The notes below the pieces were generated by a model. It was not told the origin of the DNA. It saw only the letters and a program-made list of their open reading frames with translations, and did not search any database. The position numbers and the translations under genes were made by a program. 64,000 nucleotides of DNA from Candidatus Anstonellales archaeon. Lineage in GTDB: Archaea > Micrarchaeota > Micrarchaeia > Anstonellales > J096. Location of the stretch: positions 160,001 through 224,000 of the forward strand of contig JAWACY010000002.1 in NCBI GenBank assembly GCA_038896535.1, given 5' to 3'. This document shows, piece by piece, positions 1-48,847 of this stretch (the first letter of the stretch is position 1; every line of letters begins with the position of its first letter).

Positions 1-946
1 CAATGCTTGTCAAGGCATTATTTAGCTCTTCCTTTTTTTCCTCTAAATGTGATATATTAGCTTCAATTATCTTTATTTCTGCTTTCTTTTTTTCTAATTC
101 TTTGAACAGCTCATCTCTCTCTCTTAATCTTATAAGTTCCTTATCAATGCTTTCTCTTTGCTTGTCTATTTCATTTATTTTTTCCAGCACATAATTTAAG
201 TTCTTTTCTATTTCTGCCTTTTCTTTTTCTTTCTCATCTATTTCTTTTTCCTGCATTTTTAATGTCGCGCTTATTGAATCATGCTGCATCTTTATAATTG
301 TGCCTTTTATATCATTCCTCTCTTTTAATAAGCTTTCATATTCACTCATCTTTTTAATATCTTGCTCTAATTGATTAAGCATATTTAACTTCTCGCCCAA
401 TATTAGATTTATTTCCCTTATCTTACCATTAACGATTTCAAGCTCTTTCATTGCTTCTGCCCTTTTTATTGTGTAAACAGCAGTTTCTGCAAGCTCTTCT
501 AAATATTGCTTTCTCTCTTTTGGCTTCATTTTTACTATTTTCTGTATTTCTCCTTGAGGGATTATTGCATTTCTTATATTCCCTATGCCATTCAAAACAA
601 GGAAGTGCTTTAGCTCCTTTATTTTTATTTTTTTACCATTTAGCATTATTCTTGTTTTTCCATCCCTCCTTATCTGCCTTGTTATTACATATTCTTCTTT
701 TCCATTTGTTGGACATAGCATTAATGAAACAGATGCAACTTTTGAATTCTTATTTACAAGGTTTTCAAGCTTCTCTGCTCTAAGCTTTGATAATGATGTT
801 TCTCCCAAAGCAAACATCACTGCATCTATTATATTGCTTTTTCCAGAGCCATTTGGCCCCATTATTGCAGTTATGCCTTCAGATAATTGTATATTTGCTT
901 TTTTGAATGATTTAAAATTTGATATAGATATTTCTTTTATTCTCAT
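1..946 (-). CDS. smc: Chromosome segregation protein SMC, N-terminal part (runs off the window)
   Basis: Not in the ORF track. Manual translation from ATG at 946 gives MRIKEISISNFKSFKK...IMGPNGSGKSNIIDAVMFALGE...IIPQGEI (Walker A and Q-loop of the SMC head), followed by coiled coil. Confidence 0.93.
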   Translation of the reverse strand, partial: MRIKEISISNFKSFKKANIQLSEGITAIMGPNGSGKSNIIDAVMFALGETSLSKLRAEKLENLVNKNSKVASVSLMLCPTNGKEEYVITRQIRRDGKTRIMLNGKKIKIKELKHFLVLNGIGNIRNAIIPQGEIQKIVKMKPKERKQYLEELAETAVYTIKRAEAMKELEIVNGKIREINLILGEKLNMLNQLEQDIKKMSEYESLLKERNDIKGTIIKMQHDSISATLKMQEKEIDEKEKEKAEIEKNLNYVLEKINEIDKQRESIDKELIRLRERDELFKELEKKKAEIKIIEANISHLEEKKEELNNALTSI

Positions 947-18004: not shown

Positions 18005-18400
18005 ATGAAGGAAAGCATACCTCTAAATTGGAGGAGGATCCCTTATAGGTATAAGCTTGAAGGCACAAAATGCTTGAATTGCAATAGCCATTTTTTCCCG
18101 CCCAGAATTGTATGTCCAAAATGCAGAAGGCAGGGGAAGATAACAACGCATAAATTCTCTGGTTATGGTAAAATATTAACTTTTACAAAAGTTTTTGTGC
18201 CTCCTGCAGGATTTGAGGAAATAGCCCCATATTATGTAGGCATAATAAAATTAGATGAAGGCCCTTGCATAACTGCACAGATTGTTGATTCTGAGAATGT
18301 TGAGATAGGAAAAAGAGTCAAATTAGTATTTAGAAGGTTGCAGCAAGACGGAGAGCATGGACTTATACATTATGGATTTAAATTTACTGTATTTGAATAA
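18005..18400 (+). CDS. DUF35-type Zn-ribbon/OB-fold protein
   Basis: CLNC...FFPPRIVCPKC, G.ILTFT, PYYVGIIKLDEG, YGFKF. Confidence 0.9.
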   Translation: MKESIPLNWRRIPYRYKLEGTKCLNCNSHFFPPRIVCPKCRRQGKITTHKFSGYGKILTFTKVFVPPAGFEEIAPYYVGIIKLDEGPCITAQIVDSENVEIGKRVKLVFRRLQQDGEHGLIHYGFKFTVFE

Positions 18401-19127
18401 GCCTGCTCTTGCCTTCTTCTGTTTGGATCATTGCATTATATATTAACCATTGCCCCCTATTCCTTAATCCTTTGCTTTCTGGTAATGAATACATAAATTC
18501 TCTGTTATTTGATATGACTTTTAACAACAACACCTTTGGTTTGTAAACAAAGCTTGAGAATACTGAAGTAAAGCTTTTGGTAGTTAAAGGCAATGAATAC
18601 ATAAGCTCTGCTTCAATGCCATTTCTTTCTATTTTATTTAAAATACTGCTTATAAAAGAAAATGCTTCACTCATACTTTTTACATATTGCCTAAATTGCC
18701 TTCTATTTTTATCAAATATCTTATCAAGAAATGCAATCATATATAAAGAACCCAAAACGCTAGAGAATGCTTCTATTTGTGCTGCATGTGATAAGAAAAC
18801 AGAAGATTGCCATGAAGGTTCCATCAAAGCATTAAATGCTTGTCTTGCTTTTTCATCATCAGAAATAAGCCTGAACTTGCCGTTTTTATCAGTAGTTATA
18901 GCCCCATAATATGATAGTATGTAAGCAATATGTGCTAATATTTTGCTGTTAAAATAAACTGTATTCTGCCTTACTTGCTTTCTTATGGCAATTTCCTTTT
19001 TGCGAAAATAATTGTTAAAAACCCTTTCCAAGCTGTTTTTTCTCCTTACACTAGAAAACATGAAGTATGGCAATCTTATAACCTCAACATTCCTGCTATA
19101 TGCTTCATCACAATTTTTATTATTCAT
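18384..19127 (-). CDS. Hypothetical protein translationally coupled to the RelA/SpoT-domain gene
   Basis: 247-aa ORF with a 4-nt ATGA overlap with the upstream gene. Confidence 0.6.
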   Translation of the reverse strand: MNNKNCDEAYSRNVEVIRLPYFMFSSVRRKNSLERVFNNYFRKKEIAIRKQVRQNTVYFNSKILAHIAYILSYYGAITTDKNGKFRLISDDEKARQAFNALMEPSWQSSVFLSHAAQIEAFSSVLGSLYMIAFLDKIFDKNRRQFRQYVKSMSEAFSFISSILNKIERNGIEAELMYSLPLTTKSFTSVFSSFVYKPKVLLLKVISNNREFMYSLPESKGLRNRGQWLIYNAMIQTEEGKSRLIQIQ

Positions 19128-20350
19128 TCTACCACCACTACAAAAGCATTGTTTTGTTTAATAACTTTTATATCTGGTTTTTCTGTTTTAATAACAGCAT
19201 TTATACATTGCTCTATTATCATTTCTGATTTCGCATTGTCAAAATAATGTAATAAAAATTCTCTTAAACAATTTCTTACTACCCTTTCATCTCTAAAACA
19301 TCTTATTTCATGTCTTGCTCTTAAGCGCCTTCCCAAATCATTGATTTTTATTTCTATATTAATATTCACTGTTCCTTTTTTTATCACTTCTAGATGCTGC
19401 ATTAAATACTTTTGAATGCCATGTATTGTTTCTATGCTGTTTTCCAGTCTTCCATAATTTTCATGGGTATCAACTTGCAATTCAACTGGAATAAATAGGC
19501 TTTTTTCTTCGCTCAAAAATTTGCATATTATATGTAATCTATTATAACCATTATCTTTTGGTTTAAGATAGTATTCCTTAATGCTATTATCTGTTGTAGC
19601 TGGATCTGTATCTATGAATAAGGCCGGATTTTTTTGTATATATTTTATTAAAGCATCTTCTAAAATACACATTTGCTTTTCCCTTTCTTTTTCCATAAAA
19701 ACAAGCCTTATCCCAACAAGGTCATGTAATTCAAATATGTGGTTCTCATCAAGGCCATATTGGCTTAATTTTTCATAAACATCAAATGGAGCTTTAATCC
19801 TTAACTCATAAAAAGCTAAATCAAAATCTGCTTTTTGCTTTATGTATTTCGATATTTCCCCTATTGTTTCAATAAGCGGCTTTATTTTCTGTCTTAACAT
19901 GATGCCATAATTTATGCGTCCATAATTAAAGCCATAGCTTGTACGCAAAAATAAATTATTAATAAAGAATTTCGGTATTCTGTGCAGACCAAATGACTTT
20001 GCCATCCCTCTTATCGCTGTTGCTTCTTCTACAACATGATAGCAAGTATTAATATCATAACCAGCAACTTCGTAAAGAAATAATGCAAATGCATTTAATG
20101 CTTTTTCTTTATCCCTACTGAGCAAAACAAAAAATTTATCAATAAATGGATTGAGGCCATCCCAATAAGATTTAAATAATATATTTCTAAATTCTGCTGT
20201 TTTTTTATCAAGAGAAAGTGCTTTTACATCTTCATCATTTGCATATTCCAATTTTTCAATTACTTTATTTCTATACCTAAGTCTCCTATAAAATGATGAT
20301 TTAGGTTTTATTTCCGGGTATCTGTAAAAAAATGTTTTTATATTGCCCAT
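19124..20350 (-). CDS. RelA/SpoT-homologue synthetase-domain protein
   Basis: RIKAPFDVYEK, HDLVGIR, KEYYLKPKDNGYNRLH, VELQVDT and H...K follow the order and spacing of RSH synthetase motifs. Confidence 0.78.
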   Translation of the reverse strand: MGNIKTFFYRYPEIKPKSSFYRRLRYRNKVIEKLEYANDEDVKALSLDKKTAEFRNILFKSYWDGLNPFIDKFFVLLSRDKEKALNAFALFLYEVAGYDINTCYHVVEEATAIRGMAKSFGLHRIPKFFINNLFLRTSYGFNYGRINYGIMLRQKIKPLIETIGEISKYIKQKADFDLAFYELRIKAPFDVYEKLSQYGLDENHIFELHDLVGIRLVFMEKEREKQMCILEDALIKYIQKNPALFIDTDPATTDNSIKEYYLKPKDNGYNRLHIICKFLSEEKSLFIPVELQVDTHENYGRLENSIETIHGIQKYLMQHLEVIKKGTVNINIEIKINDLGRRLRARHEIRCFRDERVVRNCLREFLLHYFDNAKSEMIIEQCINAVIKTEKPDIKVIKQNNAFVVVVE

Positions 20351-20395
20351 ATTTTACATAATATGTATAAAAGTGTTTTTAAATATTATTGACTA

Positions 20396-20483
20396 TGGGG
20401 CCACGAGGATTTGAACCCCGACTTACAGGTTTCTCTTATTTTTATCTGGAGCCTGCCGTGCTGCCAGATTACACCATGGCCCC
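20396..20483 (-). tRNA. tRNA-Trp(CCA) with 15-nt intron at 37/38 (20431-20445)
   Basis: Acceptor GGGGCCA/TGGCCCC-A; GCAGG-CTCCAG^ATAAAAATAAGAGAA^A-CCTGT; relaxed bulge-helix-bulge. Confidence 0.92.
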
Positions 20484-20817: not shown

Positions 20818-21966
20818 TTATTTCTCCGCCTGTTCTATTCTTATTTCTAATACATCCGCCGGCCTTTCTTTTTTTTGCCCATCAATTCTTGCTTTCGGCT
20901 TGTCGTTTTGTGGGTCATATTCTATTATATTTGAGCTAATATCAAGGCCGTGCTGTTCAAACAAGCCCTCTAATATTTCTTTAACTCTATCTATCCTTCT
21001 ATTGCCAACTTTTTTTTCATCTCTTCCCCTATGCAAGAAATAAAGCACTAACTTCTCTGTCTTTTTAAATTCCTCTACTGCTTTCTTGTAAGCATCAATA
21101 TTTACCCCTGTCATTTTTAATTGAGTGATAGTCTGCTCGGATAATAAAACTTCATCGGCAAATTTTTTCCTGCCTTCTGTAGTTGTTAAATCATATTGAG
21201 TTGTTGTTGCTTGAGGTGTTGTTGGTGGTGCTGTTGCTTGAGAGGGTGATGCTGGAGGAGGGCTGCTAGATGGTTCTTCTTCTCTATACCCTTTTGTTAA
21301 TTGAGCCAATTTCCAAAGCCAATATAAAAAAGCCTTTTTATCTTGTTCATCATTAAATTTTAAGTCTAAAGCTGCCATGGGTCTTTCTAAAGAGGTCTTA
21401 TCATCTTTATGAGCGTTATAAAAATCTTCAAACCCTTTACTTCTAGCGTCATCCAATAAAGAATTAAATCTATCTAATCCAGTTGCTGATGCTGTTGCTG
21501 TCTCGCTTGCTACACTTGCCCCAGTTCCTTGTGCGGCTGAACCAGTTCCTGTAGCTTCACTTTTAAACTCTGTAACACCAAACTCTAAGATTGCCTTCTT
21601 GGCTTTTTCACCAAACTTTCCATTAGTTATCTCTTCAACAAAACCTCTAGAACCAATAACAGGATTGCTCTCATTTTGCATATATTCTTTTATCTTATCT
21701 TCTTTTACTCCTGCTTTAAGTAAAAAAGCCACCCATAACATTAATAGCTCTTGTGCCTGGTCTGTTTTTAAGGGATTTCCATCTGCACCTTTTAATTGCT
21801 GCATGCGTGTTATATGGCTAGTAAACCATTGTTGATTTTGATGAGCTGTTATAAAATTATTTGCTGCATTGCCACCAAATCTCTCATTAAATGCAGTTCT
21901 AGCCTCTTCTTCAATGTTTTGCGTTTCCTGTTGTTGCTGTATCTGAGCTTGTTGGCTATTTGTCAT
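20818..21966 (-). CDS. Hypothetical modular protein with low-complexity linkers
   Basis: Q-rich N-terminus, T/A/G and P/S/T linkers, apparent internal duplication. Confidence 0.7.
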   Translation of the reverse strand: MTNSQQAQIQQQQETQNIEEEARTAFNERFGGNAANNFITAHQNQQWFTSHITRMQQLKGADGNPLKTDQAQELLMLWVAFLLKAGVKEDKIKEYMQNESNPVIGSRGFVEEITNGKFGEKAKKAILEFGVTEFKSEATGTGSAAQGTGASVASETATASATGLDRFNSLLDDARSKGFEDFYNAHKDDKTSLERPMAALDLKFNDEQDKKAFLYWLWKLAQLTKGYREEEPSSSPPPASPSQATAPPTTPQATTTQYDLTTTEGRKKFADEVLLSEQTITQLKMTGVNIDAYKKAVEEFKKTEKLVLYFLHRGRDEKKVGNRRIDRVKEILEGLFEQHGLDISSNIIEYDPQNDKPKARIDGQKKERPADVLEIRIEQAEK

Positions 21967-48688: not shown

Positions 48689-48746
48689 ATGTTAATTCAA
48701 TAATAAATATTTATAAGCCTTTCACTATAAAAATAAATACTAAAAT

Positions 48747-48845
48747 GGGCCAGTAGCTCAGCCTGGCGGAGCGACGGTCTTATAAGATCAGCTCTGCTAC
48801 ATCTAAGACAGCCGTAGGTCCTGGGTTCAAATCCCAGCTGGCCCA
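48747..48845 (+). tRNA. tRNA-Ile(TAT) with 25-nt intron at 37/38 (48785-48809)
   Basis: Acceptor GGGCCAG/CTGGCCC-A; ACGGT-CTTATA^AGATC...ATCTAAGAC^A-GCCGT; canonical BHB (CTTA/TAAG helix, 3-nt bulges TAA and ACA). Confidence 0.9.
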
Positions 48846-48847
48846 TA

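Follow-up and report, generated by a model that had tools for sequence, protein, structure and literature searches.

A divergent, shortened RelA/SpoT-superfamily protein and its overlapping partner gene in a Micrarchaeota archaeon

The A-B locus

The stretch of DNA analyzed here (the window, 64,000 nucleotides in full) covers positions 160001-224000 of contig C2 of G000, a genome assembly of a Candidatus Anstonellales archaeon (Micrarchaeota) that comprises 752 kb on 5 contigs and is 91% complete. It carries a RelA/SpoT-like open reading frame (ORF), named gene A throughout, and 3' of it a partner ORF, gene B (Table 1). A is a genuine member of the RelA/SpoT homologue (RSH) superfamily, very divergent and shortened. 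An earlier note on this DNA, made from the letters alone, had recognized the synthetase motifs of A and had proposed, as alternatives, a module like those of the toxic small alarmone synthetases (SAS), an enzyme of changed specificity or an inactive relic.

Table 1. Features of the A-B locus, in window coordinates.
Feature	Position	Strand	Description
Gene A	19124..20350	minus	408 aa, ATG start; RSH superfamily; vestigial hydrolase fold, synthetase domain (SYNTH) and small C-terminal domain
Residues 30-175 of A	19826..20263	minus	predicted all-helical vestige of the hydrolase (HD) domain of long RSHs plus linker; HD dyad absent
Residues 176-325 of A	19376..19825	minus	synthetase domain (nucleotidyltransferase fold)
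Residues 326-408 of A	19127..19375	minus	small alpha/beta C-terminal domain with no family match
D190 codon GAT	19781..19783	minus	canonical RxKxxxSxxxK has Ser here
R271 codon AGA	19538..19540	minus	canonical NGYxSxH has Ser here (Ala or Gly in some)
D294 codon GAT	19469..19471	minus	canonical ExQIRT has Arg here
A/B overlap ATGA	19124-19127	minus	GGTGGT just 5' of the B ATG
Gene B	18384..19127	minus	247 aa, basic; start overlaps the A stop (ATGA)
Spacer between tRNA-Trp and A ATG	20351..20395	minus	45 nt, A+T-rich; presumed A-B operon promoter region, judged by eye
tRNA-Trp(CCA)	20396..20483	minus	15-nt intron; Rfam 51.4 bits and ARAGORN with introns; neighbor, not part of the module

Family membership and domain architecture

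The Pfam family RelA_SpoT (PF04607) matches residues 184-300 of A with 38.1 bits (cut-off 27, E 2.1e-9), which bears out the family assignment of the earlier note by the very search it had suggested. In a six-frame search of the genome the gene scores 39.6 bits and is the sole such match in 752 kb. HD_4, HD, TGS and ACT give no Pfam match in A at E<=1, as the earlier note had already read from the letters; the same tool finds HD_4, TGS and ACT_4 in the canonical long RSH of the phylum (locus L010). Four of the five clade relatives of A, introduced below, likewise exceed the RelA_SpoT cut-off; the fifth, the protein of the congener G002, shows nothing at E<=0.01.

An alignment of the six clade sequences (A3) was the input of both an AlphaFold2 model and a profile search. 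The model of A alone, with a mean predicted local distance difference test score (pLDDT) of 88.1 and a predicted template modelling score of 0.86, has the nucleotidyltransferase-type SYNTH fold of solved RSH enzymes, in agreement with the earlier motif reading. Foldseek returned 54 matches in the Protein Data Bank (PDB) at E<=0.001 (best E 9.5e-7), and the best 26 of these 54 are all RSH enzymes (Rel, RelA, SpoT, RelP, RelQ, CapRel). In structural alignment by VIA-align, A superposes on Rel of T. thermophilus (6s2u) over 247 residues (model 32..302, chain 58..355) with Z 14.8 and a root-mean-square deviation of 3.8, and on further long-Rel catalytic regions over model residues ~30-305 (8acu_B, Z 14.5; 7oiw_A, Z 13.4). 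SAS chains reach Z 12-13 and cover model residues ~140-325 only; the toxic SAS (toxSAS) group scores 9.4 with CapRel, 7.2 with Tas1 and 7.1 with FaRel2. Because residues 32-175 of A fall, in this superposition, on the later half of the hydrolase domain and on the linker of 6s2u, a small-alarmone-synthetase architecture had to be given up for A.

The A3 profile retrieves Rel catalytic regions and SAS chains from the PDB at E 2.4e-10 to 4e-5, in alignments that begin well ahead of the synthetase (query 64-305 on 9s6k_B 109-335, query 45-315 on 1vj7 87-338); the RelSeq domain boundaries, as we presume them to lie, were used for orientation only. Within this N-terminal part, K118-x-x-G121-L...N131 of A aligns to the long-RSH stretch LAHRxGL...LEN. 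K118, G121 and N131 are its only invariant residues in the six-member alignment, and a conserved metal-binding residue is missing there. In the column of the HD dyad, defined against the canonical long RSH of the phylum, His and Asp are both absent from the clade. Of the HD domain, A keeps a fold remnant of the back half and lacks the front. Beyond Syn4, E303...H310-G-x-Q-K is a degenerate counterpart of the long-RSH motif AExGxxxHWxYK. The C-terminal domain (~83-85 residues after SYNTH) consists of two beta-hairpins around two helices according to DSSP of the model; it has no Pfam match and lies outside the coverage of the fold matches. ESM Atlas searches with A residues 322-408 and with B stayed at chance level (feature scores 0.77-0.82, query TM <0.5).

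In architecture, the modeled protein comes closest to a hydrolase-dead, shortened descendant of a long RSH: a back-half HD fold without the dyad, a complete synthetase and a C-terminal domain, the front HD half and the regulatory tail presumably having been lost. Such a descent is supported by the presence in the phylum of a full HD_4, RelA_SpoT, TGS and ACT_4 protein (L010) and of proteins of 514-542 aa that combine a weak HD_4 with RelA_SpoT (L025, L021).

Active-site residues and clade-specific replacements

The canonical Syn1 motif of RSH synthetases reads RxKxxxSxxxK. All four motifs that the earlier note had listed, with their Ser-to-Asp and Arg-to-Asp changes, are present in the translation of A, and their codons were checked. 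Syn1 of A is R184-I-K186-APF-D190-VYE-K194. Syn2 is H-D210-LVG-I-R215, whose D, G and R are invariant in six of six clade proteins, and Syn3 with the G-loop is EYYLKPK265-DNG-Y269-N-R271-L-H273, with P264, K265, G268, Y269 and H273 invariant. Syn4, E290-L-Q292-V-D294-T295, keeps E, Q and T and lacks the arginine of ExQIRT. Because the catalytic glutamate E290 is retained, the missing arginine lowers the standing of A as a canonical member, not the case that it works like one. Across the six proteins, which share 23-39% identity, R184, K186, E193, K194, H209, D210, G213, R215, Y260, P264, K265, G268, Y269, R271, H273, E290, Q292, D294 and T295 are invariant, followed after Syn4 by H310, G311, Q313 and K314.

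Residue roles were transferred to A by alignment to S. aureus RelP. According to the RelP study (PMC5794853), R78 and R112 stack on the adenine (R184 and R215 in A), K80, K88 and R91 bind the ATP phosphates (K186, K194 and Q197) and S84 contacts the ATP alpha-phosphate (D190). In the same source D107 and E174 bind Mg (D210 and E290), Y151 is the G-loop tyrosine (Y269) and H190 contacts the ribose, its counterpart in A probably being H310. Of these ATP and Mg residues, only S84 and R91 lack an invariant counterpart in the clade.

To set the replacements in context, 50 Micrarchaeota RSH-like proteins were aligned, six from the clade of A and 44 others. At the Syn4 site, Asp occupies six of six clade sequences; the others have Arg (29/44), Lys (6/44) or an uncharged residue (9/44) and in no case (0/44) an acid. 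At the Syn3 site following G-Y-x, Arg is likewise found in all six, as against Ser, Ala or Gly in 44 of 44 others. The Syn1 serine site is less uniform, with Asp in four of six clade proteins, Asn in that of G001 and Glu in that of G002. SYNTH is the best conserved part, with 30-49% identity to the window protein compared with 17-40% for the N-terminal and 13-29% for the C-terminal part. In the model, R271 stands at the start and D294 near the end of neighboring hairpin strands (272-279 and 286-295). By alignment, the new element of this study is a six-member clade with fixed Syn4 Arg-to-Asp and Syn3 Ser-to-Arg replacements, which is represented in each of the 4 genomes of the genus.

A separate observation concerns the proteins outside the clade. 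Seventeen of the 44 lack the adenine-stacking arginine of DxxGxR (mostly Thr or Met instead) and keep the Mg aspartate, the catalytic glutamate and the G-loop tyrosine, a pattern that suggests altered donor-nucleotide binding across much of the Micrarchaeota radiation.

Relatives of A in the genus and the phylum

In an exhaustive phmmer search with A, 5 proteins among 1.84 billion representatives reached E<=0.001: P0001 (423 aa, 40% identity), P0003 (411 aa, 43%), P0004 (428 aa, 32%; encoded by the congener G003), a fragment of A itself, and P0005, a weak match (E 8e-4) with canonical motifs. With A as protein query, matches were obtained in 4 of 61 related genomes including G000, these 4 being the complete set of genomes in the genus, each with a single copy and with 23-31% identity between congeners. 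None of the 57 genomes from other genera of the family and order matched, though other Micrarchaeota RSH-like proteins exist there. Word-indexed searches with A alone and with the six-sequence alignment returned no match and missed even known members, hence they are uninformative; scans of metagenome contigs with the clade alignment and with P0003 found no relative.

At the level of the whole phylum, 301 Micrarchaeota genomes were scanned with Pfam in six frames; 85 contain RelA_SpoT, and in 83 of these, G000 among them, the score exceeds the cut-off. Within A's own family 8 of the 13 genomes sampled have the domain, and a second family has it in 50 of 65. A comparative DPANN study lists RelA/SpoT genes for Diapherotrites, Woesearchaeota, Pacearchaeota and Nanoarchaeota, in a sentence that does not name Micrarchaeota, and ascribes them to bacterial transfer (PMC8407392). 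The general statement that archaea lack the stringent response, on which the earlier note had drawn, is therefore out of date for DPANN archaea at the gene level. The clade of A is not described in the accessible portions of two papers from the DPANN and alarmone literature (PMC8407392, PMC8646023); the supplements of RSH censuses may list related proteins.

We fetched 46 loci with RelA_SpoT and called their ORFs, which revealed three kinds of protein. The first are true long RSHs of 647-652 aa with HD_4, RelA_SpoT, TGS and ACT_4 (Pfam on L010), found in one genus (L010-L013). The second comprises proteins of ~355-385 aa with the motif EIQIRS (L015, L017, L020, L024, L026). The third is a large and diverse set of 416-678 aa with a central RelA_SpoT and neither TGS nor ACT; HD_4 is weak in L025 (37.5 bits) and L021 (24.7 bits), and many of its ~500-aa proteins have kept the His of the HD dyad and lost the Asp. 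A FastTree phylogeny of 231 columns and 50 sequences, from which L012, L013 and L030 were omitted as near-duplicates of L010/L011 and L018, puts the six clade proteins together as one group within the third kind. With its long branches and weakly supported deep nodes, the tree is taken to show no more than one group inside this kind. On these sequence comparisons A is part of a large, fast-evolving Micrarchaeota (DPANN) radiation of RSH-like proteins.

The first two kinds deserve a remark of their own. The long RSHs L010-L013 stem from G124, G096, G287 and G190; L010 (604-2562, minus strand) scores 145.9 bits for HD_4 and 133 bits for RelA_SpoT and has an intact LHD dyad. L015 (1207-2364, plus strand) and L017 (1294-2373, plus strand) are full-length members of the PADLOC family PDC-S33 (E ~1e-123, 410-413 bits), so that PDC-S33 single-gene defence candidates occur in DPANN archaea.

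Gene B and the partner slot

B is a real gene, as its relatives (below) show, and from its layout should be translationally coupled to A. The overlap with the A stop codon seen in the earlier note stands, and its description as an orphan holds for the family libraries: B has no Pfam match at cut-off and no credible NCBIfam, PADLOC or PHROG match. Beyond these libraries it has relatives, namely P0007 (242 aa, 59% identity over 95% of the length) and, in G003, a 247-aa gene 27 nt 3' of the A homologue (BLASTP E 9e-6, 190 residues, 20% identity). PHROGs gave no match for A, B, the G003 partner or P0007, and NCBIfam none for A or B. The isoelectric point (pI) of B is 9.9; its AlphaFold2 model (pLDDT 53) was too poor for a fold search.

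In G001 and G002, too, a same-strand gene follows the A homologue, in one case of 586 aa after 17 nt and in the other of 228 aa with an overlap. These partners show no detectable kinship to B, to the G003 partner or to each other (BLASTP E 0.023-3.1 over short segments, hhalign probability 0.1-0.2%). A same-strand 3' gene that overlaps A or starts within 27 nt of it is thus a feature of 4 of 4 genus loci, and the conservation of the partner that the earlier note had made a point of applies to position throughout and to sequence in one of the three congeners. Outside the genus, ORF maps show other or convergent genes 3' of the RSH-like genes. B is most likely, as far as these comparisons indicate, a lineage-specific, fast-evolving accessory protein that would bind or regulate A.

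In another genus, g5, the end of an RSH-like gene (527/535 aa) is overlapped by a 230-aa gene (L033, 6421-7116; L034, 6386-7078; both plus strand). We considered this gene, which lies 3' of the RSH genes of G014 and G016, as a homologue of B and rejected it on reading the dissimilar sequences; by eye, we take it to resemble an archaeal 8-oxoguanine DNA glycosylase.

Comparison with known systems

The best structural matches of A are long RSHs (T. thermophilus Rel 6s2u/6s2t; B. subtilis Rel 8acu and 6yxa; RelSeq 1vj7 and 24io), over ~240 residues that include the pre-synthetase helices; closest among them in kind is monofunctional RelA with its inactive pseudo-hydrolase. A shares with them the Syn1-Syn4 scaffold and, in degenerate form, the AExGxxxHWxYK helix. 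Unlike them it has no HD front half, no HD dyad and no TGS, helical, zinc-finger (ZFD) or ACT/RRM regions, and it carries the Syn4 Asp, the Syn3 Arg and the Syn1 Asp. As A has no ribosome-sensing part, its control must differ from that of long RSHs. Atkinson et al. 2011 found very few RSHs in archaea, none of them of the long type (PMC3153485), and Jimmy et al. describe long-RSH groups that secondarily lost domains (preprint 10.1101/575399).

The same two-domain core is found in Micrarchaeota proteins made of a pseudo-HD and SYNTH without the long-RSH C-terminal regions (416-678 aa; RelA_SpoT 52-73 bits), such as L018 of A's own family, L014, L016, L021 and L025. They differ from A by a longer N-terminus, by an HD His that is often kept, by Arg or Lys at the Syn4 site in 35 of 44 cases, and by the absence of a B homologue 3' in their ORF maps (the sequence itself was read for the g5 gene only). 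RelP and RelQ (S. aureus 6ewz/6fgx; B. subtilis 5ded/5dec) share the synthetase fold, at Z 12-13. However, these SAS consist of a single domain (~210-230 aa) and assemble as tetramers, whereas A adds a 175-residue pseudo-HD remnant and a C-terminal domain, carries a long-RSH-type motif after Syn4 and has Asp in place of the Syn4 Arg.

With the toxSAS systems (FaRel, FaRel2, PhRel, PhRel2, CapRel) and the type VI secretion effector Tas1 with its immunity protein, the A-B pair has overlapping genes, a synthetase domain and a partner without a family in common. It differs from them in a weaker fold similarity of A (Z 7.1-9.4), in domain make-up, in the lack of a mobile or defence context, and in partner homology that is detected in only one of three congeners. 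Jimmy et al. use the name toxSAS for SAS from conserved two-gene operons whose genes often overlap (preprint 10.1101/575399), and Kurata et al. show that FaRel2, PhRel, PhRel2 and CapRel pyrophosphorylate the tRNA 3'-CCA (preprint 10.1101/2021.04.30.441581).

Genomic context and the adjacent tRNA-Trp

At third codon positions A has a G+C content (GC3) of 0.21 and B one of 0.28, inside the 0.17-0.30 spanned by the neighbors; given this agreement and one copy per genus genome, A and B look like native genes. Their neighbors are housekeeping genes (archease, a DUF35-type OB/zinc-ribbon protein, acylphosphatase, a copper ATPase), and neither integrase nor defence genes were found nearby among ORFs and Pfam matches. 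The four genus loci lie at different sites: by DNA ligase/NurA/Rad50 in G003, by S19e in G001 and by HMG-CoA synthase in G002. In G000, contig C1 carries the ligase and HMG-CoA synthase genes and C3 carries Rad50, whereas S19e lies 18 kb from the pair. Ligase, S19e and HMG-CoA synthase share 59-64% identity between congeners and Rad50 35% (G000 vs. G003). Fast evolution and lost synteny are consequently not special to A-B, as the 35% of Rad50 and the scatter of ligase, Rad50 and HMG-CoA synthase show; A is fast-evolving, not uniquely so.

With default settings ARAGORN misses the tRNA upstream of A; with introns allowed it calls a tRNA-Trp (cca) whose intron, 15 nt long, sits at position 37. 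The earlier note had the tRNA right and its distance off by one (46 bp; the gap is 45 nt), and the adjacency is not conserved, since a tRNA lies upstream of A in one of four genus loci, that of the window. No tRNA was found in the 10.9 and 12.7 kb covered at L007 and L009, respectively, and at L008 a tRNA-Leu lies 3' of the partner gene. A direct, att-like repeat of the tRNA 3' end flanking A-B is absent, the repeats found being short, A+T-rich and due to chance. The adjacency to tRNA-Trp looks incidental.

A promoter and terminator scan of the locus found no excess of sites over shuffles; the scan is of the bacterial sigma-70 type and does not apply to archaea. The stretch is contained in 6 DNA runs from 2 hot-spring metagenome studies. 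Contigs of 4 runs carry identical sequence only, with no variants or indels, which makes a population-level selection test impossible. Two apparent joints in run contigs were set aside: their sides measure 20-22 nt, and the source contigs match only short stretches here.

Three further observations concern the surroundings. The DUF35-type gene (zf-ChsH2 and OB_ChsH2_C; 18005-18400, plus strand) is convergent with B and overlaps its 3' end by 17 nt. In archaea this type works with thiolase and HMG-CoA synthase. A shared neighborhood of the pairs, with DUF35 beside the window pair and HMG-CoA synthase beside that of G002, was considered and dropped, as the HMG-CoA synthase of G000 is on another contig. 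Just beyond the acylphosphatase, a 382-aa ORF (20818-21966, minus strand) with a Gln-rich N-terminus and a Ser/Pro/Thr/Ala-rich center has no Pfam match at cut-off. At 48746-48846 (plus strand; Rfam tRNA 56.3 bits), a tRNA to which ARAGORN by default assigns a 4-base anticodon is read as tRNA-Ile(tat) once introns are allowed; its 25-nt intron then lies at position 40, which is not a canonical intron site.

Possible function of the A-B pair

We favor, with moderate confidence, the reading that A would be an active, hydrolase-dead pyrophosphokinase with B as its lineage-specific accessory protein. A would be Mg-dependent and hold ATP by R184, K186 and K194, with R184 and R215 sandwiching the adenine and D210 and E290 as Mg ligands. 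A purine nucleotide that stacks on Y269 would receive the beta,gamma-pyrophosphate at its 3'-OH, to give a (p)ppGpp- or (p)ppApp-type product. The joint change of D294 and R271 probably moves the arginine to the neighboring strand rather than deleting it, with Asp as its counter-charge, such that the site would stay basic near the acceptor. Together with D294 and R271, D190 may retune metal or acceptor binding, and the extra carboxylates might hold a second metal. B would bind or regulate A.

Several findings weigh against an active enzyme with an accessory partner. The Syn4 arginine is near-universal in characterized RSH enzymes, and D190 and D294 put two additional carboxylates near the donor phosphates, so activity or the choice of donor and acceptor could be changed or lost. 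The counterpart of RelP R91 varies in the clade (Q197 in the window protein), and the putative R271-D294 contact is read from strand positions in the model. Elsewhere in the phylum, 9 of 44 proteins have no basic Syn4 residue and 17 of 44 no R215 equivalent, so the whole radiation may be drifting away from canonical chemistry. No HD_4 hydrolase was found in the 91%-complete G000 genome (only 3 Nudix genes are present), which would leave an uncontrolled synthetase without a dedicated RSH degrader. Homology to B was detected beside A in one of three congeners, and no RNA run with the A-B locus is listed among the sequencing runs.

If the departures from the canonical site are taken at face value, A would be a pseudoenzyme without pyrophosphokinase activity, kept as a nucleotide-binding or scaffold protein, with D294 and D190 as traces of an abandoned site. 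The acids in place of the Syn4 Arg and the Syn1 Ser, the lost R91 equivalent, the like departures of related proteins (17/44 and 9/44, as above) and the published statement that (p)ppGpp has never been seen in archaea (PMC8646023) all fit this idea. Yet D210, E290, both stacking arginines, both phosphate lysines, the G-loop tyrosine and H310 are invariant at 23-39% identity, SYNTH is the most conserved part of A, and the replaced sites are themselves fixed (Asp 6/6, Arg 6/6), as expected from selection on a working site and not from drift. Because the Mg carboxylates, stacking arginines and acceptor tyrosine are kept and the replaced sites are fixed, we rate an inactive relic, one of the options of the earlier note, as quite unlikely. 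A functional tie to tRNA-Trp, be it co-transcription, activity on this tRNA or an element integrated at its gene, is very improbable and close to refuted: the tRNA ends 45 nt upstream on the same strand, and some RSH toxins modify tRNA (preprint 10.1101/2021.04.30.441581), but an upstream tRNA occurs in one of four genus loci, with no repeat of the tRNA end and no integrase.

The idea of a toxSAS-like toxin-antitoxin or defence pair makes A a growth-arresting pyrophosphokinase, forming (pp)pApp or acting on the tRNA 3'-CCA, and B its co-evolving antitoxin. The pair is bicistronic and overlapping like the toxSAS operons described in preprint 10.1101/575399, and tRNA-acting RSH toxins are established (preprint 10.1101/2021.04.30.441581). 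The partner belongs to no family and evolves very fast (20% identity to that of G003), with unrelated ORFans in the same slot in G001 and G002; A itself has 23-31% identity between congeners that share 59-64% in DNA ligase, S19e and HMG-CoA synthase. The G000 genome has no RSH hydrolase, and the locus lies at a different place in each of the four genomes. Against these points, Rad50 is also at 35% between G000 and G003, and ligase, Rad50 and HMG-CoA synthase are scattered as well. Architecture and best matches of A are those of long RSHs (Z 14.8, compared with 9.4 for CapRel, 7.2 for Tas1 and 7.1 for FaRel2). The PADLOC PDC-S33 profile scores 26 bits on A, over profile positions 53-168 of 349 and hence the shared SYNTH core only, which is below the canonical long RSH of the phylum (57 bits) and far from true members (~410 bits). 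One copy per genus genome and 85 of 301 genomes in the phylum look like stable inheritance rather than a patchy selfish element; integrase, att-like tRNA-end repeat and defence genes are lacking nearby; and B, with its pI of 9.9, is a basic protein that equals many toxins in size. The toxSAS-like module of the earlier note, whose gene overlap stands and whose homologous partner is found in one of three congeners, is thereby weakened, and we regard it as unlikely.

Implications

As it stands, A is a divergent member of a known superfamily. Being compact (408 aa) and well modeled, it is a tractable enzyme with which to ask whether DPANN archaea make alarmone-type nucleotides, and the Arg-to-Asp replacement with the coupled Ser-to-Arg change on the next strand offers a natural experiment on the role of the Syn4 arginine. 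A more far-reaching and rather improbable possibility is that D294, R271 and D190 have changed the chemistry, either by a two-metal mechanism or by the use of another acceptor, e.g., an adenine nucleotide or the 3' end of an RNA or tRNA, and that A-B would be an archaeal toxSAS-like growth-control or conflict module derived from a long RSH. If this were true, it would be the first such system in archaea, and if A and B form a toxin-antitoxin pair, toxSAS biology would extend to the archaea.

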